From an uncultured Anaerolineales bacterium (GTDB lineage Bacteria > Chloroflexota > Anaerolineae > B4-G1 > SLSP01): a stretch of 64,000 bases of DNA. The stretch's first letter is position 1. Each line of letters begins with the position of its first letter. Below, in pieces: positions 11,561 through 31,032 of this stretch. The stretch lies in the NCBI GenBank assembly GCA_964504195.1, contig CAZDDI010000005.1, positions 1,175 to 65,174 on the forward strand, written 5' to 3'. The notes beneath the pieces are model-generated. The model was not told the origin of the DNA. It saw only the letters and a list, made by a program, of their open reading frames with translations, and did not search any database. The translations under genes and the position numbers were made by a program.

Positions 11561-11575
11561 GCGTAGTAAACCTGC

Positions 11576-12589: not shown

Positions 12590-14076
12590 ATGATAGGTTC
12601 GACGTCTGGCGCAGGCTGCACCAGCTCCGAGAGGATGAAGTTGCGCGTGAGCGGGTGGATGCTGTAGCACTTCTGGAGCGCATCCCCGCCGATTTCCAGC
12701 AGCGAGAGCCGCGCCAGCTCCCGGACCCCGGCGAGGGTTTGACGCTCATCCAGCCCACCGATGGCGACCAGGGCCTCCCACGGCCCGCCGGTCGTCGCCA
12801 GCAAGGGCAGGCTCAACAGGAGCTGGCGCGCGTCCGCTGAAAGCAGCTCCCAGGCCGCCCAGTAGATGAAGCGGTAGAAGGTCTCCAGATCGCCCCGTGC
12901 CTCGGCGATCTCCGCCAGCACTTGCGCCAACGGGCGCAGCGCCGCCTGCCCCACCACCAGTTTGAGCGCCAAGGGATTGCCGCCGGTCGCCTGATAGATG
13001 CGCGCCAGAATGGCATCATCCGCCTCCTGCAAAGCGCGCTCTCCCCGCTCCTGCGCGTGATAGCGCAACAACGCCGTCGCCGCAGCCGGCGGCAGCGCGC
13101 CCACATGCACGGAGGTGGCCTGCTCGAAGGTATCCAGGCGGTAGCGGCTGGTGATGAGCACCTTACTAGGGCCGGTAAGTGCCCAGAGTTCCTGCGCTAG
13201 AGCGCGATAATCGGCGGCGGTTTCCAGATTGTCCACCACCACCAGGTAGGGCTGCGCGTGGAGCAGCGCGTGCAAGGCTTCTCGCTTCTTGCCGCTGGGC
13301 CAGGCCGTGAAATGGGGGTTTCCGGTCTGCCGCGCGATGCTATTGAGCAGTTCATCCACGGTGAGCGCGGGCGCGGTAGAGAGCTGCACCTCGCTCCAGG
13401 CAAAGACCTGGCGCTGTGCAGTCTCCCAAACCAGGTGGGCGAAATCGCCTGCCTCTAGCGCTGCCAGCGCGACTGCGCGCGCCAGGGCGGTTTTGCCCAT
13501 GCCGCCCAGGCCATCCAGCACCACGAAGCGATGGCGCTCCGGCGCAGCGAGGAAATCGCGCGCGCGGGCCAGCAACGGCTCAACGCCGAACAGGCGGGTG
13601 TAGGTGGGTGGGGGCAGGTGTGCGCGCCAGGCGGCGGTTGGGGATTGGGGAGCGCTGTGCGCCCCGGCGATGCTATGATTTTCCCATTGGCACAGGAGCG
13701 CAGCGACTTGCTCAATACCTTGAGCCAGGTCGCGGTAATATTGCGCGCGGCTGACGTGCAACCGTGACGGGATGTCTTTGGGCGCGCTGCCCTGTTGGTA
13801 GGTTTGGGTGAGCGCCGTGTAGACGCGCAGGGCCGGGGCAGTATTCGCGGTATTGTCCGGCGGTTTCAACAGCGCCAACGCCTCATCGAGCAAAGCCTGC
13901 ACCAGCTGCCCGACTAGCACGGGTGTTACCTCTAGCCCTTCCGGCAACCGTCGCTGCACGAGATGCAGAGAGGCCAGCTCGCAAGCACCCAGAAAGGGCA
14001 GATCGTGATAGTGCTGCAAGGCCGCTTTGACGCGCGCCGCATCCGAAACCGCTGGTTGATGGGGTGGCAAATTCAT
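12586..14076 (-). CDS. STAND-class NTPase (NB-ARC/AAA domain) with an N-terminal helical domain
   Basis: Walker A VLDGLGGMGKTALA, followed by an NB-ARC-like arm. Confidence 0.65.
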   Translation of the reverse strand: MNLPPHQPAVSDAARVKAALQHYHDLPFLGACELASLHLVQRRLPEGLEVTPVLVGQLVQALLDEALALLKPPDNTANTAPALRVYTALTQTYQQGSAPKDIPSRLHVSRAQYYRDLAQGIEQVAALLCQWENHSIAGAHSAPQSPTAAWRAHLPPPTYTRLFGVEPLLARARDFLAAPERHRFVVLDGLGGMGKTALARAVALAALEAGDFAHLVWETAQRQVFAWSEVQLSTAPALTVDELLNSIARQTGNPHFTAWPSGKKREALHALLHAQPYLVVVDNLETAADYRALAQELWALTGPSKVLITSRYRLDTFEQATSVHVGALPPAAATALLRYHAQERGERALQEADDAILARIYQATGGNPLALKLVVGQAALRPLAQVLAEIAEARGDLETFYRFIYWAAWELLSADARQLLLSLPLLATTGGPWEALVAIGGLDERQTLAGVRELARLSLLEIGGDALQKCYSIHPLTRNFILSELVQPAPDVEPII

Positions 14077-14087
14077 CCTGTATCCAG

Positions 14088-14182
14088 TCTCAGTAGATCA
14101 CGATTTAGGCTCGTAGTGACGGCTTCAGCTGTTGGGAGAACCGCTAAAGCGGTCACTACCAACAGATCCGTGATCTACTGAG
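14088..14182. promoter_or_regulatory. Nested inverted repeat in a divergent promoter region
   Basis: TCTCAGTAGATCACG (14088-14102) pairs with CGTGATCTACTGAG (14169-14182), about 66 bp apart. An inner GTGACGGCTT / AAGCGGTCAC pair lies between them. Confidence 0.3.
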
Positions 14183-14302
14183 TCTAGGCAAAGTGTCACC
14201 TGGGTATTATACAACAAAGAGACACTTTGAGAAAATGAAGAGACACTAAGAGACACAAAATCGGTTAAGATAGAGAAAGGTTGCAAAATCAAGGAAGGGG
14301 AT

Positions 14303-14884
14303 ATGTCCTGGCTCACACTTTACAAAGTTGTGCAATGGCTCATTTTTAGCGTCTTCATTGTTTTCATTTCCGACCACCGCAAAAAGAACCCGGCTACGCC
14401 GCTGATTGATAAACGCTTGCTCCTGATGATGAAACTCTGCTATCCCATTACCTGCGTCATTCACGGCTATGTCATCACGACGATCCCACAAGTGCGCTGG
14501 ATTGACCTGGTGGCATTGGGTTGTGCGGCCATCGGTACCACGCTCATCGTTAGGTCGAAAATTGATCTAGGGCGCTATCATGCCTGGACGGGCTACTTCG
14601 CCGATATGCCGGAGTTTGTGACGCAGGGTATCTATGCCTATATGCGCCATCCGCTGTATGCCGGCATCAATATCTTCATCGCCGGAGATCTGCTCATTAT
14701 GAGCGGTCACGCTCCCTGGCAACTGACGCTGGTGATGGCCGCCATTTTGAGCTATATCATGTTCTTCACCACGCTCTCGGCGGTGCGGGAGACCCGGCAA
14801 CTGGCCGCTAAATTTGGGGCGCGTTTCGTGGCATATCAACAGCAGGTACACCCTTTTTTACCGCTGCGCAGATTTGATGCGTGA
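14303..14884 (+). CDS. Isoprenylcysteine carboxyl methyltransferase (ICMT) / phospholipid methyltransferase-family membrane protein
   Basis: Multi-transmembrane protein with MRHPLYAG (RHPxY) and an E/R-containing C-terminal motif typical of ICMT/PEMT. GC is lower than in the flanks. Confidence 0.7.
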   Translation: MSWLTLYKVVQWLIFSVFIVFISDHRKKNPATPLIDKRLLLMMKLCYPITCVIHGYVITTIPQVRWIDLVALGCAAIGTTLIVRSKIDLGRYHAWTGYFADMPEFVTQGIYAYMRHPLYAGINIFIAGDLLIMSGHAPWQLTLVMAAILSYIMFFTTLSAVRETRQLAAKFGARFVAYQQQVHPFLPLRRFDA

Positions 14885-14990
14885 GCTTGCAAACGGCAAA
14901 ACCCGGCGTGCTTGCACTTTGCGCTGTTTAGGTATACTTAATTTGATAAACCTTTGAAACATTCATGCTTCTATCATAGCGAGGTATACC

Positions 14991-17801
14991 ATGCCAGAAG
15001 AGAAATCGCAGATCACAGCTGTTTGCCCGGTTGAACCAACGCCGTTCGTGGGGCGGACGGAGGCGCTGAACACCCTGCGCGCGGCGCTGAAACTGACCCT
15101 GGCCGGCCAGGGTCAGGTGCGCTTTGTGGCGGGCGAGGGCGGCAGCGGCAAGACTACCTTGGTGACGGAATTTGTGCGCCGCGTGCAGGCGCGTCGCGCC
15201 GACCTGGTCGTGGCGCTGGGTGCCTGCAATGCGCAGACCGGCATCGGCGACCCGTACCTGCCGTTCCGCGAGGTGTTGCGCCTGCTCATCGGCGATGTCG
15301 AAGGGCAGCAGGCGCAGCGCGCTTTGACGCCGGAGAACCGCCGCCGCTTGCAAGAGTTGACGCAGCTGTCGGCGCAGGCTTTGGCGGAAATCGGCCCGGA
15401 TTTGATCGGCGTCTTCCTGCCCGGCGCCGGCCTCCTGGCAAAATTGGGCGCCTTCCTGGCTGATAAGGCCGGGTGGCTGGAGGCGCGCAAGGAAAAAGCC
15501 GCCGCGGTAGCACCCGAAGATATTGACGAAAGCCGCATTTTCGAGCAATATGTGGCGGTGCTGCGCCAGCTGGCCGCGCAACATCCGCTGATTTTGGTGG
15601 TGGATGATTTGCAGTGGGTGGATCAGGCCTCGGCGAGCTTGTTGTTCTACCTGATCCGGCAGCTGCGCGAAAGCCGCGTGCTTATTGTGGGGCTGTACCG
15701 GCCGGCGGAAGTGACTTTGGGGCGCGCGGGGCAGCGCCATCCGCTGGAGAAAATCCTCAACGAAGCCAGGCGCTATTATGGCGATCTGGTGCTGGATCTG
15801 GATCAGGCCGGAGCCGCCGAGGGCCGCCAGTTCGTTGAGGCGTTTTTGGATACGGAACCTAACCGGCTAGGGGCGGATTTCCGGGCGGCGTTGTTCCAGC
15901 ACACCGGCGGCCATCCATTGTTCACGGTGGAGCTGTTGCGCCATTTGCAGGAACGCGGCGACCTGGTACATGCGGCCGACGGCGCCTGGGTCGAGAGCGC
16001 GCGGGTCAGCTGGGATACATTGCCCGCGCAGGTCGAGGGCGTGATCGAAGAGCGCGTAGCGCGCCTGAGCGATGAACTCAAGGAAATTTTGTTGACGGCG
16101 AGTGTGGAAGGCGAGGAGTTCACGGCGCAGGTCGTGGCGCGGGTCGAGAGCTTGCCCGAAAGACGCTTGCTGCGGCGGCTGTGCCAGGAACTTGAACAGC
16201 AACATCGTTTGATCGGGCAACAAGGCGAGATGGAGGTGGGCGCGCACATTCTGGCGCGCTTCCGTTTCGCCCACATTCTTTTGCAACAACATTTCTATCA
16301 CCTTACGGGCGCAGAATGTCGCTCGTTACATGGTGAAATCGGCGAGATGCTGGAAGAGTTTTACGCCGGACAGACGGATGTCATCGTTTTGCAGCTGGCC
16401 CGGCACTTCGAGGCAGCGGGACTGTGGGGCAAAGCCGTGGCTTACCGGCTGCGGGCGGGCGCGCAAGCGCGGCAGTGTTACGCCTGCGCGGATGCAATCG
16501 CACACTACGAGCGCGCGCTGACGTTGGCAGGGAAGCTCGCGCCCGTGGATAGCCTGAGACCGCGTTTACAAGCATTGACCGGGTTGGGGGAATTGTTGAC
16601 CATTACTGGGCAATATGAACCGGCCCGCGCACGTCTGGAGGCGGCCTTGGCGGCGGCGCGGGAGGTGGGCGACCGCGACCAGGAGGCGCTAATCTGCCGC
16701 TGGCTGGCGCGCAGCTATGAAAACGCCGGCGACTATCCCACCGCGTTGGAATGGGTCCAGCGCGGACTGGCGGCCTTGCAGGGTCGGGAGACGGCGGAAG
16801 CTGTGCAATTGCGGCTGCTCGCCGGGCTGGTGCAGCTGCGGCGCGGGGAAATGGAGATAGCGCTGGAACAGGCCGAGCTCGCGCTACGGCTGGCGCAGGC
16901 TTTGGGCGACCAGTATGCTCTGGGGCGCACCTATGTGTTCTTGGCGGTGCTGACCTTGCAGCGCGGGCAGAATCAACATTCGGCGGGACTGGCGCAGCGC
17001 GGCCTGGACTGCTACACCCAGGCCGGCGACCTGGCGGGCCAGGCTACGGCGCACAATCAGATTGCCAATGCCCGGTTCAATAGGGGGGAGTGGTCAGCGG
17101 CCGCGGCGAGCTATACCCAGGCGCGGGATACCTTTCAGCGCATTGGCGACTTGCACAACCACACCATTGCCCAGAACAACCTCGGCGAGATTGCGCTCAA
17201 TCAAGGCCGGCTGGAGGATGCGTTGGCTGCGTATCATGAGGCGCTTCATTTGCAGGAGAAACTTCCCGACAGATCGCCCTATATTCTGGGCATTTTGCAC
17301 AACAACCTGGGCGCGGTGTACGTGCGCCGGGGCGAACTGGCGGCGGCCCGCGAGCACTTGCAAGCGAGCCTGGCGCACTTCGAGGCGGCCGGGTCGCGCG
17401 ATATTCTCCCGGAAGTCTATCGCCATCTGGGCGAGATTGCCTGGCAAGAGGGGGCTATGCCGGAGGCGGAAGCGGAAGCCCAACGCTCCCTCGCGCTGGC
17501 GCGGGAGTTGCAAGCCGAAAACGAGGCGGGGATCACGCTGCGCCTGCTGGGTGAACTGGCATTGGCGCGACAGGATTATGCCGTCGCTGCGGCGCACCTC
17601 CGCGAGAGCCTGGCGATTTTGCTCAAGTTGGGAGAGACCTATCAGGCGGCCCGCACGCGCCTGGCGCTGGCGCGCCTGGCCCTGGCCGTGGGCCGCCCGG
17701 CCGACGCCCGCGTTGAACTCGATGCCTGCGAGCCGGTCTTCGCGCAATTGGATGCCGCGCCCGACCTCGCGGCGGCGCGGGAACTGCGGGCGGGAATTTA
17801 G
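14991..17801 (+). CDS. Large ATP-binding regulatory protein, AAA_16 ATPase + TPR array (STAND-like)
   Basis: Walker A AGEGGSGKTTL. LILVVDDLQWVD Walker B. Long TPR-rich C-terminus of 936 aa. Confidence 0.7.
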   Translation: MPEEKSQITAVCPVEPTPFVGRTEALNTLRAALKLTLAGQGQVRFVAGEGGSGKTTLVTEFVRRVQARRADLVVALGACNAQTGIGDPYLPFREVLRLLIGDVEGQQAQRALTPENRRRLQELTQLSAQALAEIGPDLIGVFLPGAGLLAKLGAFLADKAGWLEARKEKAAAVAPEDIDESRIFEQYVAVLRQLAAQHPLILVVDDLQWVDQASASLLFYLIRQLRESRVLIVGLYRPAEVTLGRAGQRHPLEKILNEARRYYGDLVLDLDQAGAAEGRQFVEAFLDTEPNRLGADFRAALFQHTGGHPLFTVELLRHLQERGDLVHAADGAWVESARVSWDTLPAQVEGVIEERVARLSDELKEILLTASVEGEEFTAQVVARVESLPERRLLRRLCQELEQQHRLIGQQGEMEVGAHILARFRFAHILLQQHFYHLTGAECRSLHGEIGEMLEEFYAGQTDVIVLQLARHFEAAGLWGKAVAYRLRAGAQARQCYACADAIAHYERALTLAGKLAPVDSLRPRLQALTGLGELLTITGQYEPARARLEAALAAAREVGDRDQEALICRWLARSYENAGDYPTALEWVQRGLAALQGRETAEAVQLRLLAGLVQLRRGEMEIALEQAELALRLAQALGDQYALGRTYVFLAVLTLQRGQNQHSAGLAQRGLDCYTQAGDLAGQATAHNQIANARFNRGEWSAAAASYTQARDTFQRIGDLHNHTIAQNNLGEIALNQGRLEDALAAYHEALHLQEKLPDRSPYILGILHNNLGAVYVRRGELAAAREHLQASLAHFEAAGSRDILPEVYRHLGEIAWQEGAMPEAEAEAQRSLALARELQAENEAGITLRLLGELALARQDYAVAAAHLRESLAILLKLGETYQAARTRLALARLALAVGRPADARVELDACEPVFAQLDAAPDLAAARELRAGI

Positions 17802-17849
17802 CCACGAATTTCGCAAATTAGCACCAAGTTTATCTTGAGGAGGATAACC

Positions 17850-20800
17850 ATGTGGAATCGGCAGGTATTCAGATTGTTTGTGATGATGGGTGTCTTGCTG
17901 TTCGTTTTGCCCACCTCGGGCAGTGCGTGGGCTGAGAGAAATCAGCCGCCCATACCTTTTGAAAATATCCCAGAAGGTGAATTATTCGCGCCCTGCACGG
18001 TGGCCGGGTTCATCGCCACGAACACGGTGTGGAGTCCGGCGAGTTGCGACCCGTACATCGTGAACGGCAGTCTGATTGTGAACGCGGGGGTGGCGCTCAC
18101 CATTCAACCGGGGACGACGGTGCGCTTCGACGGCCAGAAGGCGTTGACCGTGAACGGGGCGTTGATCGCGCGGGGGACGGCAACGACGCCGATCACGTTT
18201 ACCTCGAACCTGGCGTATCCGGCGAAGGGGGATTGGGGCTACATCCATTTCACCAACAGCAGCGCGGACGCGACCTTCGACCCCGGCGGCAACTACACGG
18301 GCGGGAGCATCCTCCAGTACGCGGTCATCGAGTATGGCGGCGGGGGCAGCGCGAGCGAGAACGGGGCGGTGCGCATCGAGGCAGCGTCGCCGTACCTGGA
18401 TCACAACACCATCCGGCAGAATCGGGCGGATGGCATCCACGTATGGAGCGGGGAGGGCATCCGCATCACCAACAATACGATTAGCGATAACGGGATTGCT
18501 GGATCAGTCAATTCCAGTGGGATTTACGTTTCGGCCTCCGGCACGGCCCTGATTAGCGATAACATACTGACGAACAATGCCGGAGCGGGTATTGATCTTT
18601 ACGTCGGCACGGCGAATGTCAACGGCAACACGGCTACCGGTCATCCTTATGGCGGCATCTATGTTTCTGTTACGGCGCAGGCCGCCATCGTGGATAACGA
18701 AGTAAGTGGCAATGCCTGGAATGGCGGCATCTATGTTTCGGCTTCCAATGGCACAGCAACCATTAGCAATAACAATGTGCATCATAACTCCGCGAGTGCT
18801 ACGCCTAGAGGCGGTGGCATAACTGCCCGTGATGGTATATTCACCATTCAAGGGAATATGGTGAATAATAACAGTGGTAGCAATTCTGGTGGTATTGATT
18901 GTTACGGTTCTAGCGCTACCATTCGTGATAATACTATCACTTATAACAATAGTAGTTCTGGTTACGGTGGCGGCGGCGGCCTCCGCGTGTGGGGAAACGC
19001 GGCTACGGTGCTCAACAATACCATTACTCACAACACGGGTGATAATGGGGGTGGGATCTATGTTACTGGTTCAGCAACCATCGTGAACAACACTATCAGT
19101 AATAACACAGCCAACAATGTCGGCGGTGGCATACGCATCTGGAGTGGTTCCGCCACCATCAGCAATACCATACTCACCGGAAACTCGGCCCCCTATGGTG
19201 GCGCTATCTATGTCAGCGGCTCTGTGCCAGCCATCCAGCACAACACCATCACCAACAACGCCGCCACCGAACTCAACGGCGGCGGGGCGATCTATCTGGC
19301 GAACGGCTATCGCCCACTCATCAACTACAACGATTTCTACGGCAACACCGGCGGCGGCGCGACCAATTTCAACGACCTCTACAATGGCAACGCCGTCGGC
19401 GCGCCCGATGTCAATGCCCAAGACAACGATTGGGGTGAAACGGATCCCGAGGTTATCGAATCCCGTATCCACCACTACATTGACGACGCTTCTTTCAGTA
19501 TTGTAGATTACGCGCCTTACACCCTGGTCAACGCTCCGGCCAATTGCACGGTGGCCGGGTTTATCGCCACGAACACGGTGTGGAGTCCGGCGAGTTGCGA
19601 CCCGTACATCGTGAATGGCAGTCTGATTGTGAACGCGGGTGTCTCCTTGACCATCCAGCCGGGGACGACAGTGCGCTTCGACAGCCAGAAGGCATTGACG
19701 GTGAACGGGGCGTTGATCGCGCGGGGGATGGCAACGACGCCGATCACGTTTACCTCGAACCTGGCGTATCCGGCGAAGGGGGATTGGGGCTACATCCATT
19801 TCACCAACAGCAGCGCGGACGCGACCTTCGACCCCGGCGGCAACTACACGGGCGGGAGCATCCTCCAGTACGCGGTCATCGAGTATGGCGGCGGGGGCAG
19901 CGCGAGCGAGAACGGGGCGGTGCGCATCGAGGCAGCGTCGCCGTACCTGGATCACAACACCATCCGGCAGAATCGGGCGGATGGCATCCACGTATGGAGC
20001 GGGGAGGGCATCCGCATCACCAACAATACGATTAGCGATAACGGGATTGCTGGATCAGTCAATTCCAGTGGGATTTACGTTTCGGCCTCCGGCACGGCCC
20101 TGATTAGCGATAACATACTGACGAACAATGCCGGAGCGGGTATTGATCTTTACGTCGGCACGGCGAATGTCAACGGCAACACGGCTACCGGTCATCCTTA
20201 TGGCGGCATCTATGTTTCTGTTACGGCGCAGGCCGCCATCGTGGATAACGAAGTAAGTGGCAATGCCTGGAATGGCGGCATCTATGTTTCGGCTTCCAAT
20301 GGCACAGCAACCATTAGCAATAACAATGTGCATCATAACTCCGCGAGTGCTACGCCTAGAGGCGGTGGCATAACTGCCCGTGATGGTATATTCACCATTC
20401 AAGGGAATATGGTGAATAATAACAGTGGTAGCAATTCTGGTGGTATTGATTGTTACGGTTCTAGCGCTACCATTCGTGATAATACTATCACTTATAACAA
20501 TAGTAGTTCTGGTTACGGTGGCGGCGGCGGCCTCCGCGTGTGGGGAAACGCGGCTACGGTGCTCAACAATACCATTACTCACAACACGGGTGATAATGGG
20601 GGTGGGATCTATGTTACTGGTTCAGCAACCATCGTGAACAACACTATCAGTAATAACACAGCCAACAATGTCGGCGGTGGCATACGCATCTGGAGTGGTT
20701 CCGCCACCATCAGCAATACCATACTCACCGGAAACTCGGCCCCCTATGGTGGCGCTATCTATGTCAGCGGCTCTGTGCCAGCCATCCAGCACAACACCAT

Positions 20801-23800
20801 CACCAACAACGCCGCCACCGAACTCAACGGCGGCGGGGCGATCTACCTGGAGAACGGCTATCGCCCGCTCATCAATTACAATGACTTCTATGGCAATACC
20901 GGCGGCGGCGCGTCTAATTTTAACGACCTCTACAATGGCAACGCCGTCGGCGCGCCTGACATCAATGCCAAGAACAACTATTGGGGCACCACCGATCCCA
21001 ACGTCATCGAATCCCGCGTCTACCACTACATTGATGATGCTTCCCTCAGTATCGTGGACTACATCCCCTACTACTACACGTTACGCGATGACGCCGCGCT
21101 GCTTACTGCGCCGGTCACGGCCAATGTGCCAACCCCCATCACTTTTGCGCTCTATCGCATTGACGTGCCGCAGCCCGGCTCCGTCGTCACGGTCACGCTT
21201 TCTAATCTGCAACAGGATTTCGACCTGCTGCTCTTTGCCCCCGAACTCGATGAAGAAACCGGCAACCTGCGCGACCTGGCGCGCATCAGCAATATCGCCC
21301 GCATCAGCAATATCGGGCGGCTTAGCCAACTGGCGCGCATCAGCAACATCGCCCGCATCAGCAATATCGGGCAATTGCTCGGCATCGGCGATCTGGAAAG
21401 CCTCGCGCGCATCAGCAACATTGCCCGGATTAGCAATATCGCCCGCATCAGCAACATCGGCGAGACCGGCGCTTCCGGCACGCTGGTGGGCATCTCCGCT
21501 ACGCCGGGCCTGGCGGATGAGCAGATCGTCCACGAAGTTCACGAACTTGCCGGACCGTACTATGCCGCCGTGGGCGGCGCGTTTGCACAGGATAATGGCA
21601 CGCCGTTCACGCTCCAGGCGGTCATCCGGGGTTCGGATGATTCCTACACAATTATCAGCGGCGCTGTGCCGGTAACGTTTACCACTCCACCGCCTACCGA
21701 AGCCGTGCGCACGCTCATTCTCCACAATCCCACGCGCCTGGCGCAAAAATATCCCGGTCAAGCGGTAGAGATTCTGGATCTGACCGCGCAATTGGAGACG
21801 CTGGCCACGCTGCCGGAAGTGGATGGCGCGGTGATTTATCTGGATGATTATCCGGCGATTGTGCAGGCTTATCAGGATTGGGACATTCACGCCGACGATC
21901 CCTCGTGGGCCAACCGCGTCGCCGTGCATCTCAAGTCGCTGCTCTACAGTTTGGCGGAGGCCTACCCAGAATGGGAGTATCTGGTGCTGGTGGGGGGCGA
22001 TGAGATTATCCCCTATCGCCGCGTGGCCGATTATACTTACCTCGCCAACGAGCGCACCTACGAAATGGCGGATGCGGCGTTGCCGCTGGCGCGGGCGCGG
22101 CAGTTGCGCTATTATCTGAGCGACGACTACTACGCCGGGCTGCTGCCATTGCCACGCGATGGGCGCGAGTTCTACCTGCCGCACGTCGCCCTGGGGCGGC
22201 TGGTGGAATCGCCCGCAGAGATCACGGCGCAGGTGGAGGCGTTCCTCGCGCGGCCCGCGCTGGAACCCACGGACGCCCTGCTCACCGGCTACGAGTTCTT
22301 ATTGGATACAGTGGACGTGATGAGCCGCACGCTGGCGGCTTATGGCGTCGCCGAGCGGACGGCGTTGGCAGATAACACCTGGACGGCGCAGGACTTCCGC
22401 GACACGCTGTTCACGCAACCCACCGCGCCGGGGCTGATCGCGCTCAACTCGCACTTCACGCACTCCAGTTTCTTTCCCAATGATCCTAATGATGTGTACG
22501 CCACCGAAGTGACCGCCACCACGCGCTACAGCCATACGCTGGCGTTCAGCATCGGCTGTCACAGCGGCCTCAATGTGCCAGATGCCGCTTTCGCTGATGC
22601 GACGCTGGCGACAGACTGGGCGCAAGCCTGGACGCGGCAGGGGGCGACCTACCTCGGCAACACGGGCTACGGCTACGGCGACGCCGACCTGGTGGCCTAC
22701 TCCGAGCGGCTGATGGCGAACTTCGTGGGGCATCTGGGCGATTGGAGCGAAGGGCCGCAGACGGTGGGCCGCGCGCTCCTGCGCGCCAAGCAAGGGTATT
22801 TCAACGCGCTGGCGGCAGGGTCATTTACCAGTTACGATGAAAAGACCGTCGGTGTGATGACGCTTTACGGTTTCCCCATGCTTCAGATCAATTTGCCACT
22901 CACGACCACCGCGCCCTTTGGCGGCCCTAGTCTGGCGCAGGTCAAGCGCCTCGAGACAGCCGGGATGCAGGCGCAGGGGAACACCTCCGTGACAAGTACA
23001 CACATAGACTTGCATTTCAACTATACGCAACATTCTGCGCCTAACGGTGCGTACTATACCCTCGCCGGGAGTGAGGATGTACAGATAGTGGGGCATCGGC
23101 CCGTGCAGCCGCGCACCTCGGTCAATATAGCGCGCCCTGATGGTCAATACGCGCAGGGCGTTTTGTGGGTCGGCGGGACGTTCACTGAAAGCGCCGACTT
23201 CAACCCACTCATCGCGCGGTTGGTCACAGAGACCGTCACATCCACCGAACCGACCTACCCGATCACCCTGACTTGGTATCCTCAGCAACCCGGTTCGCTC
23301 AACACTTTCCTCAGTATTGACGCACAGATGCGCGAGCGGCTGGTGGTCGTGCCGGGGCAGTTCCGCGCCAACGGGACGGGGACGCCGACCGCAGGGACAC
23401 AGCGACTCTACACTGATCTGGCCTTCTACATATACTATGCTCCCTTTGATACCGAAGACTTTACCCCACCGGGTATCTGGGACGCACAGGCCGTGCAGCG
23501 CAGCAGCAGCGTGGACTTCGACGTGTGGACGAGCGACGAGAGCGGCATCCAGCGGGTGGTAGTCTTGTACCGTCGCCTCAATACGAATACCTGGTCAAAG
23601 GTGGAACTGACCCACGATTGGATGACCAGCCGGGCTACGGGCAGCGTGAACGACCTCACAGGCGAGTTCGAGTATTTTGTGCAAGCGGTGGATAGCGTGG
23701 GGAATGTGGGCGTGCGTTTCGATGGAAATATCATCACCAGGATGCACGCACTAACCGTCGAAAAGGTGGGGCAGGGGCTTGTCACAGTGTCGCCAACAGG

Positions 23801-24548
23801 CGGCGAATATGTGGCAGGCACGGCGGTGACGTTGACTGCAACCCCGGCAACTGGATGGGGTTTCGCCGGCTGGAGCGGCGCGTGCAACGGAACTGGCCTT
23901 TGCTACATCACCATGAACGCTGATCAGGCCGTCACGGCGACATTTGCCATCAATACCCACACCCTGACCGTGCAACAGGTGGGCCAGGGAACGATCAACC
24001 AGACGCCGCCAGGCGCCATCTTCGATTACGGCACAGTCATCACGCTGACCGCAACCCCGGCAACCGGTTGGCGTTTTTCCAATTGGAGCGGCGCGTGCAG
24101 CGGCAGCGGCGACTGCCATATCACCATGAACGCCGATAAGACCGTCACCGCAGTATTCAGTTGGATAGCGGTGTGCAGCCCCATTACCGACACTACGGTG
24201 AGCCTGCTGACAACCGGAGATTTGTATACCGATACCGTTGTCACGTTCCAGGCGGGGATTCTACCGCTCGACGCAACGCCGCCCTACTCGTACACCCTCG
24301 ATGACGGGGTGGAGATGAGCACCAGCAGCACGACATTCACCTTCACTCGCACCTTTGCCACACTCGGCGCGCATACCGTCACCTTTGCCGCGCGCAACTG
24401 CGGCCAAAGCACGCCGGTCACAGCCACAACGCATGTTACCATTGTGGCGCGGCCAGCACAGGATGAGCATTGGGTTTACTTGCCATTGGTGTTGCGGCAG
24501 CCTGCCCAGGCAGCCACAACCTTCACGCCGCGCCCGCCTGCTCGCTAA
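17850..24548 (+). CDS. Giant secreted surface protein with right-handed beta-helix repeat modules, (ARISNI)n repeat, C25/caspase-like peptidase-like domain and InlB B-repeat domains
   Basis: GAGGAGGA Shine-Dalgarno. Signal peptide. Repeated NNTI(T/S)xN...GGGI(Y/R)V PbH1-type turns. His/Cys dyad motifs NSHFTHSSFF...FSIGCHSGLN. Repeats VTLTATPATGW(G/R)F(A/S)(G/N)WSGAC..(T/S)G.C.ITMNAD resemble the divergent InlB B-repeat. Confidence 0.75.
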   Translation: MWNRQVFRLFVMMGVLLFVLPTSGSAWAERNQPPIPFENIPEGELFAPCTVAGFIATNTVWSPASCDPYIVNGSLIVNAGVALTIQPGTTVRFDGQKALTVNGALIARGTATTPITFTSNLAYPAKGDWGYIHFTNSSADATFDPGGNYTGGSILQYAVIEYGGGGSASENGAVRIEAASPYLDHNTIRQNRADGIHVWSGEGIRITNNTISDNGIAGSVNSSGIYVSASGTALISDNILTNNAGAGIDLYVGTANVNGNTATGHPYGGIYVSVTAQAAIVDNEVSGNAWNGGIYVSASNGTATISNNNVHHNSASATPRGGGITARDGIFTIQGNMVNNNSGSNSGGIDCYGSSATIRDNTITYNNSSSGYGGGGGLRVWGNAATVLNNTITHNTGDNGGGIYVTGSATIVNNTISNNTANNVGGGIRIWSGSATISNTILTGNSAPYGGAIYVSGSVPAIQHNTITNNAATELNGGGAIYLANGYRPLINYNDFYGNTGGGATNFNDLYNGNAVGAPDVNAQDNDWGETDPEVIESRIHHYIDDASFSIVDYAPYTLVNAPANCTVAGFIATNTVWSPASCDPYIVNGSLIVNAGVSLTIQPGTTVRFDSQKALTVNGALIARGMATTPITFTSNLAYPAKGDWGYIHFTNSSADATFDPGGNYTGGSILQYAVIEYGGGGSASENGAVRIEAASPYLDHNTIRQNRADGIHVWSGEGIRITNNTISDNGIAGSVNSSGIYVSASGTALISDNILTNNAGAGIDLYVGTANVNGNTATGHPYGGIYVSVTAQAAIVDNEVSGNAWNGGIYVSASNGTATISNNNVHHNSASATPRGGGITARDGIFTIQGNMVNNNSGSNSGGIDCYGSSATIRDNTITYNNSSSGYGGGGGLRVWGNAATVLNNTITHNTGDNGGGIYVTGSATIVNNTISNNTANNVGGGIRIWSGSATISNTILTGNSAPYGGAIYVSGSVPAIQHNTITNNAATELNGGGAIYLENGYRPLINYNDFYGNTGGGASNFNDLYNGNAVGAPDINAKNNYWGTTDPNVIESRVYHYIDDASLSIVDYIPYYYTLRDDAALLTAPVTANVPTPITFALYRIDVPQPGSVVTVTLSNLQQDFDLLLFAPELDEETGNLRDLARISNIARISNIGRLSQLARISNIARISNIGQLLGIGDLESLARISNIARISNIARISNIGETGASGTLVGISATPGLADEQIVHEVHELAGPYYAAVGGAFAQDNGTPFTLQAVIRGSDDSYTIISGAVPVTFTTPPPTEAVRTLILHNPTRLAQKYPGQAVEILDLTAQLETLATLPEVDGAVIYLDDYPAIVQAYQDWDIHADDPSWANRVAVHLKSLLYSLAEAYPEWEYLVLVGGDEIIPYRRVADYTYLANERTYEMADAALPLARARQLRYYLSDDYYAGLLPLPRDGREFYLPHVALGRLVESPAEITAQVEAFLARPALEPTDALLTGYEFLLDTVDVMSRTLAAYGVAERTALADNTWTAQDFRDTLFTQPTAPGLIALNSHFTHSSFFPNDPNDVYATEVTATTRYSHTLAFSIGCHSGLNVPDAAFADATLATDWAQAWTRQGATYLGNTGYGYGDADLVAYSERLMANFVGHLGDWSEGPQTVGRALLRAKQGYFNALAAGSFTSYDEKTVGVMTLYGFPMLQINLPLTTTAPFGGPSLAQVKRLETAGMQAQGNTSVTSTHIDLHFNYTQHSAPNGAYYTLAGSEDVQIVGHRPVQPRTSVNIARPDGQYAQGVLWVGGTFTESADFNPLIARLVTETVTSTEPTYPITLTWYPQQPGSLNTFLSIDAQMRERLVVVPGQFRANGTGTPTAGTQRLYTDLAFYIYYAPFDTEDFTPPGIWDAQAVQRSSSVDFDVWTSDESGIQRVVVLYRRLNTNTWSKVELTHDWMTSRATGSVNDLTGEFEYFVQAVDSVGNVGVRFDGNIITRMHALTVEKVGQGLVTVSPTGGEYVAGTAVTLTATPATGWGFAGWSGACNGTGLCYITMNADQAVTATFAINTHTLTVQQVGQGTINQTPPGAIFDYGTVITLTATPATGWRFSNWSGACSGSGDCHITMNADKTVTAVFSWIAVCSPITDTTVSLLTTGDLYTDTVVTFQAGILPLDATPPYSYTLDDGVEMSTSSTTFTFTRTFATLGAHTVTFAARNCGQSTPVTATTHVTIVARPAQDEHWVYLPLVLRQPAQAATTFTPRPPAR
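17994..21095 (+). repeat. In-frame tandem segmental duplication (2 x 1551 bp, 517 aa each) inside the giant gene
   Basis: Identical spurious ORFs recur at a +1551 offset (18029 and 19544; 18334 and 19885; 18504 and 20055). A few substitutions near the edges argue against an assembly artefact. Confidence 0.85.
21281..21460 (+). repeat. 18-bp tandem repeat, about 9-10 copies, encoding (ARISNI)n
   Basis: GC[GC]CGCATCAGCAA[TC]ATC repeated. Peptide ARISNIARISNIGRLSQLARISNIARISNIGQ... Confidence 0.85.
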
Positions 24549-24922: not shown

Positions 24923-25321
24923 ATGCCCTACCTGATCCTGGCCTTGCACTTGCTCGGCCTTAGCCTGGCCCCCGGCGCGCTGCGCTGGGTCTTGGCCCCG
25001 ATGTGGGGCGCGGCGGCGGCCCTGGCCTACTTTAAGCCCGACGACCGCGCCGCGACCACGAACTACGTCTACTTCTTCCTTGCCGGGAACGCCGGCCTCA
25101 TCTTTGGCTACCACATCGCCGCGCTGCTCGTCACCGGCACGCCGGAGCCGGGCGCGACAACGCTCTACGGCATCTCGGTGTGGCTGCTGGGCTTCGCCGT
25201 GATGTCTTGTATTGGCTTCTACGCCTACGTCCTGCGCTTTTTATTCTGGGACCGCACCACGCCGTTCTTCGGCGGGCGGCTGCAAAGCCGGGACGTGATC
25301 CAGCAGATCAAGCGACAGTGA
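24923..25321 (+). CDS. Hypothetical integral membrane protein (132 aa)
   Basis: GGAGGATAACCC Shine-Dalgarno. Four predicted transmembrane helices. Confidence 0.55.
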   Translation: MPYLILALHLLGLSLAPGALRWVLAPMWGAAAALAYFKPDDRAATTNYVYFFLAGNAGLIFGYHIAALLVTGTPEPGATTLYGISVWLLGFAVMSCIGFYAYVLRFLFWDRTTPFFGGRLQSRDVIQQIKRQ

Positions 25322-25324
25322 CGT

Positions 25325-25368
25325 GCTGCGTACTGCGTAAATTCCGGATTACGCAGTACGCAGTACGC
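25325..25368. repeat. Palindromic extragenic element, GTACTGCGTAA family, copy 1
   Basis: GCTGCGTACTGCGTAA-attccgga-TTACGCAGTACGCAGTACGC lies directly after the stop codon. A related copy is at 62358-62401. Confidence 0.5.
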
Positions 25369-25410
25369 AATAGCCGACACGCAACTTCCCCTAGAGAGGT
25401 AATCCTAGCC

Positions 25411-28400
25411 ATGACCCATCCCACCTTCAAAATGACCCTGACCCCCGACGGCGCGGCACTGCAAGCCTACGCCTGGGCAGAGAGCGCTGCCGCTTGGCGC
25501 GCGTGGTCGCCCTATGCGCTGCGCATCCTGCGCAAGCCCTACCGCCACGCGCGCACCCACCTGGAACTCACCGATGATGTCGTGAGCACCCTGTACGATC
25601 CGCAGTCCCAGCGCAACACCCCGGCGGCCTTTGGGCTCGCCAATGTGCCCGAACTGGGCCTCGTCCAGGTCTACGGCGGGCTGGCGACGGCAGACTCCCA
25701 AGAACTGGCCGTGCAAACGGCGGCGCTGCACTCCGCGCGCCTGGTCGCCGCGCTGCAAGGTCGCTTCCGGCAGTCGCGGTTCACGCTACTCGCCGCCGAA
25801 GAAGCCACGGCGTTCTACCGGCATCTGTGGGCTTGCCGCTGTACGGCGTCCCTGATCGGGCAACTGGTGCCCCGGATCGCGCCGGGGATGGGCTCCGGGC
25901 ACGGTATCAACCAACTGGTGACCACCGATGTCCAAGAACAACTGGAAGTCATCGCCGCGGCGCTGGCGGGGGAGCCGTTCGCCGTCCTCACCCTGGCGCA
26001 TCCCCTAAACGCGCTGGACATCCGGCAAATGCTGGCGGATACGGCGCAAGCCCTGAGTTACTTCGCTTCCAAAGTAAAGCAGAGCGAGTCGGCGAATATC
26101 AGCGCCGTGCTGCCGCTGTTTATCAACCCCGTGGCGCTGTTCAGCGAGCAGAGCCAGCGCACGACGCAGGTGGCGCGGGGCGACCAGCGGTTGACCAGCG
26201 AGCAAAACGCACACCGCCTGGCCGCCGGGCAGTCCGATGGGGTCACGGCTTACCGGCGAGAAACCGCCAGTAGCGCACAGCATCAGGGCGCGGAACGCAC
26301 GAGTTACCACGAGGAGCAGCGCAGCAGCGAGAACATCCGCGAACACGAAGAAAGCCGCGTCAATCTGGAACGCGACTATGCCGAGGCGTATAGCCTCGCG
26401 CGCTCCTACCAGGGCCGCGAGGCCGGGACGCTGACCACGCAGGGGCAGCGGGACGCCGATCAGACCGGGCAGCGGCAGCAGCACACGGCGGAACAGGGGC
26501 AGTTGCACAGCGTCGAAAGCATTGATGAGCAGGTCGCCGGCGTGCGCTCCGGCGCGGGCAGCCGCTCCAGCGTGGAAGCCTTCAGCGTGGGCGAACGCTA
26601 CGCCGGCGGCAGCAGTCGCGCCTGGCAGGGTAGTTATGATGAACAGACGCAGCGCGCGTTCAGCGGCGCGGGCCAGGAGCACACGGCGGAGGGCTATCGG
26701 CAAGCCGAGCAGCGCGCCGGCAGCCTGGTCAGCGGCGAGACCTTTGCGCGCACGACAGAAAACACGGTGCAGGGCGAGGGGGCACAGCTGCAGACCTACG
26801 CCGAGCGCGGCGTCGAAGGCGACCTCTCGCCGCGTGTTTTCGGCATCGGCGGCGGGGAAGTCATGGCGGCGGGCGAACGCGGCCATCTCACGCAGAGCCG
26901 CGACTCCGAACTGGCCCAGGCCGAAGGCGCGGCTAACCTGGTGCGCCAGACGCAGCAGGGCGAGGTGACGACCGGGGCGCAGGTGGCCGACAGCGCCTAC
27001 CAGCGCAGCGGGCAGCAGCAAGAAGGGCTGGGGCAGACCTGGCAAGGCCAGGAAAGTGTGCAGACCGCCGAGTGGCGCAGCGGGGGCGGGACGCGGAGCA
27101 GCCAGCTGGCCTATGGCTACAGTGAAGCCTATCAGGACGCCAGCCACACTGACCGGCAGGCGCAGCGCGCCTGGGACAGTCAGGTAGACCAGGACGCGGC
27201 CTGGCAGCAGGCGACCCGCGAGGGCTACCAGGGCGTCGAGCGTTTCGCGCGGGCGTTCGGCGGCAGTTACAGCGAGGCCGGGCAGCGCAGCGGGCATCTT
27301 TCACAGCAGGATGTGATCACTGCCGACCGCAACCTACAACGTGAGACCGAGCGCGTGCTGGACGGGTTCCGCGCAGAGACCTTCGCCGGGCACCGCGACA
27401 GCCAGGAGCAGGTGGCCGGCGTGGAAGCGCGGCAGGATGCCAAGATCGGCGCGGGGCGCGAGTTCGTGCAGGCCCAGGCCGCCGAACAGGTGGGGACGGC
27501 GGTAAGCGCCGCGGGGCGCACGCAGGTAACGACGCGCGGCGTCATGGGGCCGTCGGGCGGCTCGCTGGTGGCCGGGCTGGCCTTTGCGCGCCAGACCGTG
27601 GATATGCAGCGCGATCTGGTGGCGCAGTTGCTCGAGCAGCAGGTGCAGCGCCTGAACGCCGGGCTGGACACGGGGCTGTTCCTGACGCAGGTGACGCTGC
27701 TGGCCCCCGATGAATCCCGGCTGGAACGGCTGGCCGCCGCCGCGGTCGCCGCGATGCGCGAGGAGCACGTCGTGGTGCCGGTCGCGGTGCGCTCCGGGGA
27801 TGCGACGCTCTGGCAGCGCGCGGTGGCGCTGGACTTTGATGCGCGCCGCGAAGATGCCGCCGCCGGGCCGTTCGAGGCGTTGCGCCACGCGCAAACGCTC
27901 ACCGCCAACGAACTGGCGGCACTGGTGCATCCCATCAGGATTTCCGATGGGACCATTTCGGCCTCGCTGGACGCCTGGCCCGATGACCTCTCGCACCGGC
28001 GCACGCAGGGCGAGATCGCGCTGGGCCGGGTACTGGATGTGAACTTGCAGCCCGATTCTAACAACATCCACCGCTTTCGCGCCGATGAACTGATGCACGC
28101 CGTCATTGTGGGCGACTCCGGGTCAGGCAAGTCCAATTCGGCCTTGTGGTTTGTGTCGCAGGTAGTCAACGCTGTGCGCCAGGACGCGCAGGGCGACCCC
28201 CTCCCCGCGCCGACCACCGGGCCGGTGACGCCGCTGGCCCTGGGCGGGACGCCGCGCATCGGGGTGACGGTCTTCGATCCCACCGGGGAATGGCGCAAGT
28301 TGGGCAAGTTGATCCCGGCGGCGGACTTCCGGTACTACTCGCTGACGGATCCGCAGACGTATCCGTTACGGTTCAACCCCTTGCGCATCCCCAGCCCCTA

Positions 28401-29482: not shown

Positions 29483-29520
29483 GGACATGGCTCAAAACCC
29501 TGGAGAAGTCAGTTTGACAC
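29483..29520 (+). mobile_element. Solo terminal inverted repeat related to the IS at 36929-38532
   Basis: GGACATGGCTCAAAACCCTGGAGAAGTCAGTTTGACAC is ~34/36 identical to the reverse complement of that IS's right IR. The tip faces outward, to the left. Confidence 0.6.
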
Positions 29521-29541
29521 TTTCTGAAATAAGGAAATCTT

Positions 29542-31032
29542 ATGAACACAGCAAATTATATTTTACAATATGGTCAAGACGAAACTATAGCAATTATCAC
29601 AGAAAAATCCCAATATACCTACAAAGATCTGCGGAGTGCTGTGAACAAAATCGCTACCAAAATTCTAAGTATTGGAATTCTGCCTGGCGATGCAGTTGGA
29701 CTGCTTAGCGCAAACTCTTTGTTTTGGGTGGCTTCATATTTAGCCATTATGAAAATAGGGGGTATTGCAGTACCCTTTTCAACAACTTTGACAACAAAAC
29801 AATTTCAGCAAGCAGAGAGTTTTATTAAATGTAAGGCGATTTGTTTGCAGGAACTTTATCGTAGTAGATATGTGAGTGCATTAAAAAACAAACTGCCAAT
29901 AGTTAGCGAAAACATCCTGTTACCAACTGATTCAATGACGGTCGAAGAATCGCCGGAGACGGTGATAACTGATCCAGAGCAAGATGCAGCTTTCATGCTA
30001 ACTTCTGGAACAACTTCAGAGCCTAAGGTCGTGAGAGTTTCACATGAGAATATTCAATCGAATACCGAATCAATAATCAGCTATTTGGAAATCACTAATT
30101 CAGATCGCATAATGGTCATTCTTCCCTTCTTCTATTGCTTTGGTACATCTTTGTTGCATACACACTTGAGAGCGGGGGGCTCGCTTGTTATAAGCAATCG
30201 TTTTGCTTTCCCAGAAACCGTATTGAACTTGATGGAAACATATAATTGTACAGGCTTTGCTGGGGTGCCATCTACATATCAGATACTTCTCAGAAATACT
30301 ACTTTTCCCAAGCGTAAGCTGCCAATGTTAAAAAAAATCCAACAAGCTGGGGGAAAACTACCTTCTGTTCTCATAAAAGAGTTAAGGGCTATTTTGCCGG
30401 ATTCTAACATCTATATTATGTATGGACAAACAGAAGCTACAGCTCGACTATCGTATTTACACCCCGAAATGCTTGAAAGAAAATTAGGTTCAATAGGCAA
30501 GGGAATTCCAGGTGTTGAGTTGCGTGTAGTAGGAAGTCAAGGTATTGATGTTAGCCACGGTGAAGTTGGTGAAATCGTTGCAAAAGGAAAGAACATCACA
30601 AAAGGGTACTTGAATGATCTGCAAGCAACTGCGGTGAAGTTTAGAGACGGTAATCTGTATACAGGAGATTTAGCTACAGTAGATGAAGATGGCTTTATCT
30701 ATATCGTTGATCGTTCGAGTGATTTTATTAAATCATATGGACATCGAGTTAGTAGTCAACAGATTGAAGGTTGCATTTCAGAACTTCAAGATGTTATAAG
30801 CACAGCAGTTATTGGTGTTCAAGACGTTGTTCGAGGAGAAGCTATAGTAGCTTATGTAACTTTACATAAGAAATCTATTCTTTCTTCTGAGAATATAATC
30901 GCACACTGCAGACAAACACTACCAAGTTATATGATTCCGCGTGATGTGATCGTAGTAAGTGATCTGCCTATGAACGAACAGGGAAAGATATTGAAATCGG
31001 CACTCAAACAACAAGTCTTGGGTGAATTGTAG
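29542..31032 (+). CDS. AMP-dependent synthetase/ligase (acyl-CoA or acyl-ACP synthetase family)
   Basis: MLTSGTTSEPK (AMP-binding core), YGQTEA, and YTGDLA...DEDGFIYIVDRSSDFIKSYG motifs. AT-rich codon usage. Confidence 0.8.
   Translation: MNTANYILQYGQDETIAIITEKSQYTYKDLRSAVNKIATKILSIGILPGDAVGLLSANSLFWVASYLAIMKIGGIAVPFSTTLTTKQFQQAESFIKCKAICLQELYRSRYVSALKNKLPIVSENILLPTDSMTVEESPETVITDPEQDAAFMLTSGTTSEPKVVRVSHENIQSNTESIISYLEITNSDRIMVILPFFYCFGTSLLHTHLRAGGSLVISNRFAFPETVLNLMETYNCTGFAGVPSTYQILLRNTTFPKRKLPMLKKIQQAGGKLPSVLIKELRAILPDSNIYIMYGQTEATARLSYLHPEMLERKLGSIGKGIPGVELRVVGSQGIDVSHGEVGEIVAKGKNITKGYLNDLQATAVKFRDGNLYTGDLATVDEDGFIYIVDRSSDFIKSYGHRVSSQQIEGCISELQDVISTAVIGVQDVVRGEAIVAYVTLHKKSILSSENIIAHCRQTLPSYMIPRDVIVVSDLPMNEQGKILKSALKQQVLGEL

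Follow-up and report, generated by a model that had tools for sequence, protein, structure and literature searches.

A gingipain-type peptidase gene of a Chloroflexota bacterium probably combines an exchangeable N-terminal head with an old, internally converted module duplication

The gingipains of Porphyromonas gingivalis belong to MEROPS family C25 of clan CD, and their catalytic histidine precedes the cysteine with a spacing of 33 residues (His211/Cys244 in RgpB). Sharing of adhesin modules and recombination are known from the gingipain and hemagglutinin loci, and concerted evolution of tandem domain repeats is a general phenomenon, and an ordinary pattern, in bacterial surface proteins. 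In sediment metagenomes, few predicted extracellular peptidases are more abundant than exported C25-like ones (PMC6752024), yet their Chloroflexota branch is uncharacterised. We analysed the gene of a multidomain C25-like cysteine peptidase in a stretch of 64,000 nt (the window) from a Chloroflexota (Anaerolineae-like) bacterium. The gene covers 17850..24548 of the plus strand (2,232 codons and the stop) within a single open reading frame (17835..24548). Because the true start is ATG 17850 behind a strong Shine-Dalgarno sequence GAGGAGG (17837..17843, plus strand, 7 nt 5' of the ATG by direct reading), the gene coordinates of the original prediction are exact, and its multi-domain architecture of beta-helix modules, a hexapeptide tract, a C25-like His/Cys domain and InlB B-repeats also proved correct. 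The translation starts with a predicted Sec-type signal peptide (17850..17933, plus strand; MWNRQVFRLFVMMGVLLFVLPTSGSAWA, with cleavage in front of E as judged by eye according to the AXA rule), and the product is predicted to be secreted.

Two tandem modules of 517 aa follow, copy 1 at aa 49-565 (17994..19544, plus strand) and copy 2 at aa 566-1082 (19545..21095, plus strand). The module is predicted to be a right-handed parallel beta-helix, scoring above the thresholds of Beta_helix (PF13229; 188.1 bits against a cut-off of 25.9, E = 1e-55), NosD (PF05048; 104.7 bits against 23.6, 5.8e-30) and TIGR03804 (64.2 bits against 19.45) with six stretches each, in line with the Beta_helix match that had been expected. 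The in-frame tandem duplication of 1551 bp claimed from the sequence was confirmed by self-comparison, as the signal at an offset of 1,551 nt (517 codons, in frame) was far above chance, and the second copy was recovered by tblastn with 97% aa identity. As read from the assembly, both copies share an identical core, a putative gene-conversion tract (18179..19294 in copy 1, plus strand, with its partner at 19730-20845; longest perfect run 1,116 nt). The differences between the copies, mostly synonymous, are clustered at the module edges, with 15 in 186 nt at the 5' edge and 39 in 225 nt at the 3' edge, together 54 in 411 nt compared to 0 in 1,116 nt of the core. A perfect repeat of this length exceeds short reads, and the assemblies of two related loci, L001 and L009 (see below), show probable frame errors, which would be compatible with an assembly or polishing artefact, either with a differing true copy number or with unlike cores made identical by consensus building or polishing. 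However, the edges of both copies are distinct and coding-consistent and the junction between copy 1 and copy 2 is unique (DYAPYTLVNAPAN running into CTVAGF), and therefore at least two copies must exist. As the frame is unbroken across the 6.7 kb of the gene (Ns = 0), and as an assembler would keep apart cores that differed to the extent of the edges (8-17%), an artefact is unlikely.

Modelling, Foldseek and alignments assigned a C25-like catalytic domain with gingipain fold to aa 1285-1683 (21702..22898, plus strand). Its AF2 model reached a pLDDT of 95.3, and Foldseek ranks 1-5 were exclusively RgpB and Kgp (E 8.9e-13 to 6.2e-10, TM 0.51-0.65, ~430 columns), with E ~1e-12 and TM 0.59-0.65 for RgpB (1cvr/4ief) and E ~1e-10 for Kgp, followed by CHAT, separase, caspases and legumain. 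The model is that of a clan CD caspase-haemoglobinase fold with the two-subdomain catalytic domain of gingipains, and contains a candidate His-then-Cys dyad, His1535 (22452-22454) and Cys1570 (22557-22559, both plus strand), in which each residue is predicted at the C-terminal end of a beta-strand: H251 and C286 in domain numbering, modelled just after strands 245-248 and 280-283. Both residues are invariant in two alignments of 54 (A1) and 17 (A2) sequences, as are the GCHSG and NxHF motifs around the dyad among homologs down to 33% identity. Two aspartates of the domain, D198 and D202, are conserved to at least 90% and may include the acidic S1-pocket residue that gives Arg/Lys specificity in family C25. 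The domain is under purifying selection, with dN/dS about 0.14. In the Pfam scan, PF01364 (Peptidase_C25) was matched neither by the whole protein nor by the isolated domain at E <= 10, and sequence-profile searches reached no solved gingipain; 26 of the 54 alignment members, a count that does not include the domain of the window itself, matched PF01364 with a best E of 4.4e-14. The caspase/C25-like His-Cys region of the original prediction is therefore supported via its homologs, its fold and the invariant H1535/C1570, whereas the direct Pfam scan rejects Peptidase_C25. From the model and the conservation, proteolytic activity would be expected. That PF01364 does not recognise the domain, and that binding-type domains account for most of the protein mass, might also suggest a non-catalytic adhesin or structural surface protein, in which a degenerate C25-like domain would serve as scaffold and the function would be purely binding (beta-helix, B-repeat, PKD), but this is very unlikely with His, Cys and both motifs invariant at such distances and with purifying selection acting on the domain.

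In front of the catalytic domain, a putative PPC-like beta-jelly-roll (aa ~1095-1262; 21132..21635, plus strand) is interrupted by a repeat tract. Its PPC match is weak (PF04151; 17.4 bits against a cut-off of 25.9, E 0.0085) and extends only halfway through the profile, as far as the insert, the strands were modelled with a pLDDT of ~90, and the best Foldseek matches of the model, again weak (E 2e-3 to 3e-2), were the protease-associated jelly-rolls Tk-SP, ColH CBD and the CPE C-terminal domain; PF04151 was matched by four homologs. The tract (aa 1143-1202; 21276..21455, plus strand) consists of 10 in-register hexads, seven of which read [LI]ARISN. TRF found a period of 18 nt at 21282-21369 and 21403-21459 and a super-period of 72 nt, which verifies the (ARISNI)n tract of 18-bp repeats described before. 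Homologs carry a tandem-peptide tract in the same jelly-roll loop with lineage-specific units, including such of 5, 7 and 8 residues, and two orthologs, L008 and L009, have one hexapeptide unit more than this gene. By eye, IARISN fits the textbook pattern of left-handed beta-helix hexads, [LIV]-[GAED]-x2-[STAV]-x (PF00132), but this assignment was rejected, as no Hexapep match was obtained at E <= 10, AF2 gave a low-confidence helical hairpin (pLDDT 41-55) and homologs carry units other than hexads in this loop.

Behind the catalytic domain, homolog alignments define a conserved beta-rich region belonging to the family core (aa 1684-1961; 22899..23732, plus strand), for which Pfam gave only one weak FN3-like match. 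The claimed InlB-type B-repeats (aa 1962-2108; 23733..24173, plus strand; DNA repeat D3) were found by Pfam as two stretches of Flg_new_2 (PF18998; 80.6 bits against 23.6, 8.4e-23), the best of which (aa 2037-2104) covers profile positions 1-70 of 73. A PKD-like Ig domain (aa 2109-2200; 24174..24449, plus strand) remained below threshold (E 0.004, 17.6 bits against 23.5), and is followed by a YLP-box, VYLPLVLR, as putative C-terminal sorting motif (24474..24497, plus strand) with 16 further residues after it. The box scored 13.1 bits with the NCBIfam model NF050076 (sort_motif_YLP; models NF050076/NF053834), below the cut-off of 15. In dozens of homologs the motif forms the extreme C-terminus, with tails scoring up to 16.8 bits; by this comparison the YLP-box here is clearly homologous but atypically placed. 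PF18962 or any other model of the T9SS C-terminal sorting domain was not matched in Pfam and NCBIfam scans of the protein. The peptidase is probably retained at the envelope or surface.

Searches yielded 101 homologs of the peptidase, some of them named 'C25 family cysteine peptidase', and the closest database protein was 51% identical. The family comprises at least 2,634 clusters at 50% identity (E <= 1e-30), and many members are extended by long stretches at the N-terminus and measure 2,000-3,200 aa. The comparison with orthologs suggested by the original prediction led to the two metagenome loci L008 and L009, which share the core and carry other heads: the C-terminal 1,145 aa (aa 1088-2232) are 77-87% identical, and the heads of both, SBBP/DUF7948 or Kelch propellers according to Pfam, are unrelated to the beta-helix head. 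The gene upstream in the window encodes a STAND-type NTPase with TPR (14991..17801, plus strand; AAA_16 1.7e-24, TPR_12 2.2e-31) and is syntenic with the gene 5' of the L008 ortholog (59.6% aa identity). Its last ~1.1 kb (window 16692-17789, equivalent to L008 2975-4069 with 83% nt identity by blastn) forms the conserved left flank of a replaceable head cassette. DNA homology breaks at 17789 and 21115 (blastn), and the cassette in between (17790..21114, plus strand), consisting of the intergenic region, the RBS, the signal peptide and both beta-helix modules, showed no homology to the corresponding segments of L008 and L009 in blastn and blastp. L009 also lacks the two B-repeats, its head ORF as called is 5'-truncated by an in-frame stop, and its GC3 is 0.48 in the head versus 0.85 in the chassis. 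Between L008 and L009, nt identity ranges from 66% to 99.4% across 60-codon windows. Because the orthologs share the C-terminus and the upstream gene while the heads are unrelated and one of them has no B-repeats, the N-terminal head is regarded as a swappable cassette and the gene as a recombination mosaic. The head, possibly the targeting or binding part, would be exchanged by recombination between the conserved flanks. Entirely different heads, the missing B-repeats in L009 and the additional hexapeptide unit in both orthologs agree with the proposed evolution by module gain or loss, and cassette replacement of heads is ordinary evolution for such proteins.

The age of the duplication had been read differently in the original prediction, where few edge substitutions were taken to imply a recent event; this could not be upheld. 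With dS of 0.28 and 0.75 and dN/dS about 0.1, the module edges are about as divergent as the window and its orthologs are from each other (dS 0.3-1.2), and are therefore old. A recent whole-module tandem duplication, in which the 1,551-nt unit was newly copied and the edge differences arose later, would account for a period of exactly one domain in frame and a core 100% identical across 1,116 nt, but is highly improbable, since all 54 differences lie in the edges and none in the core (P about 1e-68 if the edge rate applied throughout), since the edge divergence matches that between lineages, and since the stepwise fall of identity between the copies toward the 3' edge is what a conversion tract should show at its borders. 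Diverged edges around an identical core instead point to an old duplication, the core of which was recently homogenised, presumably by gene conversion. An old in-frame tandem duplication would have led to the two beta-helix modules, and intragenic gene conversion probably equalised the central 1.1 kb recently, with the old divergence persisting at the edges. No third module copy as possible donor was detected within the window (tblastn), no close relative with the same beta-helix head was found in the sequence collections searched, and none of the family members listed has two tandem copies of the 517-aa module. As a caution for genome analysis, near-identical tandem copies alone do not date a duplication.

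Taken together, the gene probably encodes a Sec-secreted, presumably envelope-retained peptidase of the gingipain type (clan CD, C25-like) with an exchangeable head and an old module duplication with a converted core. A core conserved in thousands of proteins, namely the PPC-like jelly-roll with its tract, the catalytic domain with His1535/Cys1570 and about 280 aa of beta domains, would have received accessory domains, with the YLP-box near the C-terminus. Rather speculative, and more doubtful than probable, is the idea of a diversification hotspot, in which a protease chassis would be re-targeted by head swaps between strains and the tract would be functional and matched to each protease. Such a hotspot would be analogous to the exchange of receptor-binding domains in tail fibres or polymorphic toxins. 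As a functional element the tract may be, for example, a latency loop, a bait loop or an autoprocessing site; alternatively, it is a passive spacer. Recurrent and unexplained in front of the catalytic domain, it is a concrete target for biochemistry, and the locus is a clean natural example of enzyme diversification, with a core kept, heads swapped, domains gained and lost, mosaic recombination and modules homogenised.

Among the known systems, the gingipains RgpB and Kgp (PDB 1cvr, 4ief, 4rbm, 6i9a) come structurally closest, with a match that extends over all 399 aa of the catalytic domain and with the same His-then-Cys order, here at a spacing of 35 residues. They are likewise secreted multidomain proteins with Ig-like domains behind the catalytic domain. 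However, the catalytic domains share just 12-15% sequence identity (Foldseek), and PF01364 is not matched by the protein described here. In contrast to the gingipains, which are T9SS cargo, a YLP-box is present and the T9SS C-terminal domain absent, the place of the gingipain prodomain in front of the catalytic domain is taken by a putative PPC-like jelly-roll containing the repeat tract, the accessory domains are N-terminal heads, and the host belongs to the Chloroflexota and not to the Bacteroidota. Uncharacterised Chloroflexota proteins annotated as 'C25 family cysteine peptidase' or 'peptidase' (for example P0012, P0032, P0050, P0080, P0100 and locus L001 of Ca. Trichofilum aggregatum) have the same core, in which a putative PPC-like domain bearing a tandem-peptide tract is followed by the catalytic domain, beta domains and a YLP-type C-terminus; nearest are L008 and L009, with other heads on the highly similar core. 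The identical core and diverged edges of the modules resemble concerted evolution of tandem surface-protein domains, with nothing distinctive. Single-module beta-helix proteins (Beta_helix/NosD; P0102-P0221) are stand-alone secreted proteins of 550-900 aa that match the 517-aa unit over its full length (98% coverage, up to 50% identity), and some of them (P0173, P0181 and P0216) have InlB B-repeats and a YLP-box in addition. Whereas these have one module and no peptidase, the module here is doubled and fused to a C25 core.

The region 17835-24548 on the forward strand is one single open reading frame, and the ATG at 17850, with GAGGAGG 7 nt upstream and a typical Sec signal peptide (ending AWA/E) in its translation, confirmed the predicted gene boundaries 17850-24548 as exact and a length of 2,232 residues. 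A Pfam scan of this protein led to Beta_helix (1e-55), NosD (5.8e-30) and two domains of Flg_new_2, a divergent InlB B-repeat (8.4e-23), and NCBIfam added a parallel beta-helix repeat. Together with an 18-nt repeat tract these matches bear out the multi-domain architecture of the original prediction, every listed feature of which is present in the sequence. Scans for tRNA and Rfam families across the 64-kb window were empty, and promoter and terminator scans gave no excess over the shuffled expectation. Near the C-terminus, VYLPLVLR (24474-24497) corresponds to the 'YLP-box putative sorting motif' of NCBIfam (NF050076 and NF053834), with a score just under the cut-off and 16 extra residues (QPAQAATTFTPRPPAR) following, which are identical in the window protein and its metagenomic orthologs L008 and L009. 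In dozens of relatives the YLP-box closes the protein, and the pattern [VIL][YF]LP[LVI][VIL]x[RK] terminates dozens of otherwise unrelated secreted proteins of the C25 and beta-helix families (database homologs P0001-P0221). The idea that this motif is new was dropped, as it is already curated in NCBIfam; a word search of the literature, covering both the motif and the term 'YLP-box', brought up unrelated papers only.

The head-to-tail duplication of the beta-helix module was visible in the offset-1551 identity profile, with copy 1 at 17994-19544 (+) and copy 2 at 19545-21095 (+), and as the period equals 517 codons the duplication is in frame, as predicted. At least two copies must exist, since the edges are distinct in each copy and consistent with coding, and since the sequence joining the copies (..DYAPYTLVNAPAN followed by CTVAGF..) is unique; how many copies there are exactly, and whether the core is truly perfect, depends on the assembly. 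As assembled, both copies share an identical run of 1,116 consecutive nt (18179-19294 = 19730-20845), to be compared with 15 differences in the 186 nt of the 5' edge (dN 0.029, dS 0.28) and 39 differences in the 225 nt of the 3' edge (dN 0.096, dS 0.75). The majority of these edge changes are synonymous, their dS lies within the range found between the window gene and its orthologs (0.3-1.2), and the probability of zero core differences at the edge rate is about 1e-68. Judged from this sequence pattern, the duplication appears to be old and its core homogenised afterwards: differing edges around an identical core are what would be expected if old tandem paralogs had undergone gene conversion (or unequal exchange), and the stepwise drop of identity approaching the 3' edge fits repeated conversion tracts with differing end points. 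An old duplication without homogenisation predicts a diverged core, in which no difference is seen. Recent copying of the whole unit, as originally proposed from the few edge substitutions, predicts identical edges and is unlikely, as the edges differ. A possible donor third copy was not found within the 64-kb window. The 517-aa unit represents a complete domain: hundreds of secreted proteins with a single module, 550-900 aa long and spread over many phyla, could be aligned to 98% of it (top identity 50%). A phmmer search of the module against the PDB gave no match, and no close relative bearing a beta-helix head was found in the genome and metagenome collections scanned.

Both orthologs share the C-terminal part of the window protein (aa 1088-2232) and carry different N-terminal parts, or heads. 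L008 (Ga0208461_1002192; 1,932 aa) matches at 81% and has a head of DUF7948 and SBBP beta-propeller repeats, L009 (Ga0208825_1001259; 1,443 aa) matches at 77-87% and has a head of Kelch repeats, and neither head shows any similarity to the beta-helix modules. Both B-repeats are absent from L009. Taken together, the ortholog comparisons bear out the gain and loss of modules more strongly than had been proposed. DNA homology between the window and L008 covers 16692-17789 at 83%, the final part of an AAA_16/TPR gene that both have upstream, breaks there, and restarts at 21115 to extend to 24674 at 80%. With homology in both flanks and none across the head, which brings its own RBS and signal peptide, a 3.3-kb cassette has been replaced. 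By composition the Kelch head in L009 is foreign (GC3 0.48 vs 0.85 in the chassis, the rest of the gene), and an in-frame stop cuts short the ORF as called. In L009 1-200 a stop lies in frame 8 codons ahead of the ATG, Kelch-like sequence continues further upstream and a signal peptide is absent, the ORF probably reflecting a frameshift, a pseudogene or a sequencing error. Downstream of the gene the two loci are 98.6% identical, within it (L008 4175-9973 vs L009 197-4528) identity ranges from 66% to 99.4% in 60-codon windows, and the window and L008 likewise diverge unevenly along the gene. This makes the gene a recombination mosaic, in keeping with conversion between the two modules. Unrelated heads, presence or absence of B-repeats and mosaic identity also mark the L008/L009 gene as a candidate recombination or diversification hotspot. 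The original prediction was therefore right in architecture and modular evolution, and wrong in the age of the duplication.

For the predicted C25-like His-Cys region, neither Pfam nor NCBIfam gave a match in the whole protein, nor did Pfam for the isolated domain at E <= 10, and the PDB, searched by sequence and by profile using the domain, a 54-sequence alignment and a trimmed 17-sequence alignment, yielded chance matches only and no gingipain. A homology search with the domain resulted in 101 relatives, chiefly from Anaerolineales and other Chloroflexota, part of which carry the NCBI name 'C25 family cysteine peptidase', and PF01364 matches 26 of the 54 aligned sequences (the window's domain being among the 54, not among the 26). 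His1535 and Cys1570, in the motifs NxHF and GCHSG, are invariant in the alignments, and an AlphaFold model from the 54-sequence alignment (pLDDT 95.3) places them just past consecutive strands. When the model was compared with the PDB by Foldseek, gingipain R (1cvr, 4ief) and gingipain K ranked at the top (E 8.9e-13 to 6.2e-10; TM 0.51-0.65 across the whole domain), followed by the remaining clan CD enzymes. As modelled, the domain has the gingipain fold with a conserved dyad, and it is under purifying selection. Fold, dyad and the homologs matching PF01364 speak for the assignment, and the missing direct Pfam match speaks against it; because the family HMM is not matched, we use the label 'C25-like' and not that of a certified C25 member.

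The predicted (ARISNI)n tract was located by Tandem Repeats Finder at 21282-21369 and 21403-21459, with 18-nt units and a 72-nt super-period. In the model this tract (pLDDT 41-55) is no free linker, being inserted into a beta-jelly-roll whose halves reach a pLDDT of ~90. Fold search of the jelly-roll led, with weak E values, to Tk-SP, the ColH collagen-binding domain and an enterotoxin C-terminal domain, and the modelled domain seems to resemble accessory domains of secreted proteases; Pfam PPC remained sub-threshold. A gingipain prodomain as identity of this PPC-like domain found no support from the fold search, and a left-handed beta-helix for the tract was rejected owing to the lack of a Hexapep match, low model confidence and non-hexad units elsewhere in the family. 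Relatives carry a tandem peptide tract in the corresponding loop with differing units: (ARLSNI) in both orthologs, (AQLSNI) with about 22 copies in Ca. Trichofilum aggregatum, and (GLMGNI), (GGSIASI), (GSQISAI), (GGRARNT), (RGRARSS), (AQRDI), ([VI]PLQN) or (GPSSPEG[IV]) in other members. Among members whose upstream region is complete, a strict detector found a tract immediately before the catalytic domain in 38 of 122, compared with 0 of 118 for a control window past that domain. Canonical units have Ile in 7 of 7 cases in the window and Leu in 8 of 8 in L008 and L009, whose Leu codons are varied and which carry one more unit. Such lineage-specific units of 5, 6, 7 or 8 residues occur in the same loop in the window (21276-21455), in the Ca. 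Trichofilum aggregatum locus L001 (~8417-16150) and in P0014, P0069, P0072, P0080-P0099 and P0236-P0355. A covariation test of Arg-containing units against catalytic-domain residues gave a few discriminating columns and was underpowered (~4 vs ~5 independent lineages). Residue 1540 (nt 22467-22469), five residues past the catalytic His, is S/Y/W/E/D with Arg units and Q/A/R without Arg, a putative covariation that counts as a lead but does not amount to a result.

In the long-read assembly of L001, a 746-aa NosD/Beta_helix ORF (6204-8444) extends into the beginning of the 2,577-aa C25 ORF (8417-16150); a frame error may have divided a single longer gene into the two. In each of the three loci (window 11576-17801; L001 2017-5148 and 16457-20491; L008 1136-4087), STAND-type NTPase/TPR genes adjoin the C25 gene, as AAA_16+TPR, NB-ARC+TPR, BTAD+NB-ARC+TPR and cyclase+AAA_16+TPR types, which could reflect a regulatory link or the mere abundance of STAND genes in Chloroflexota. 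Directly 3' of the peptidase gene lies a 1,397-aa ORF (25180-29373) with no match in a Pfam scan, a Q/E/G/S-rich, low-complexity N-terminal half and a Walker-A-like GDSGSGKS motif in its C-terminal half; downstream of the orthologs it is absent, with SurE in its place. A low-GC island (29500-41200; 0.38-0.44 vs 0.62-0.73 around) encodes an AMP-binding enzyme, an asparagine synthase, an NAD-synthase-like protein, an acyltransferase and two GDSL-like proteins (Lipase_GDSL, sub-threshold), and ends with a truncated Ldh_1_N gene (39501-40061) beside a DDE_Tnp_1 transposase (40040-41134, minus strand). It was probably acquired horizontally; a second low-GC patch is found at 2000-4000.

The window enzyme may be an active extracellular endopeptidase, and its head would bring it to a surface or substrate: domains of the beta-helix, SBBP and Kelch types are typical binding scaffolds. 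The doubled module could provide a longer head or added avidity, and the YLP-box might serve retention or processing. Head-cassette exchange and the recurrent tract are possibly worth following up. A search with the core profile gave 5,964 cluster representatives (E <= 1e-3), of which 2,634 remained at E <= 1e-30. Many of these proteins are 2,000-3,200 aa long with the core distant from the N-terminus; the N-terminal extension of complete members has a median of about 710 aa. Minimal members (~1,100 aa) consist only of signal peptide, jelly-roll with tract, catalytic domain, beta domains and YLP-box, and stand-alone proteins with beta-helix modules, B-repeats and YLP-box were also found. Given these long relatives and stand-alone modules, the window protein is a typical member, large and domain-shuffled, of an abundant, uncharacterised family, and exported C25-like peptidases have been described to dominate the predicted extracellular peptidases of some sediments (PMC6752024).
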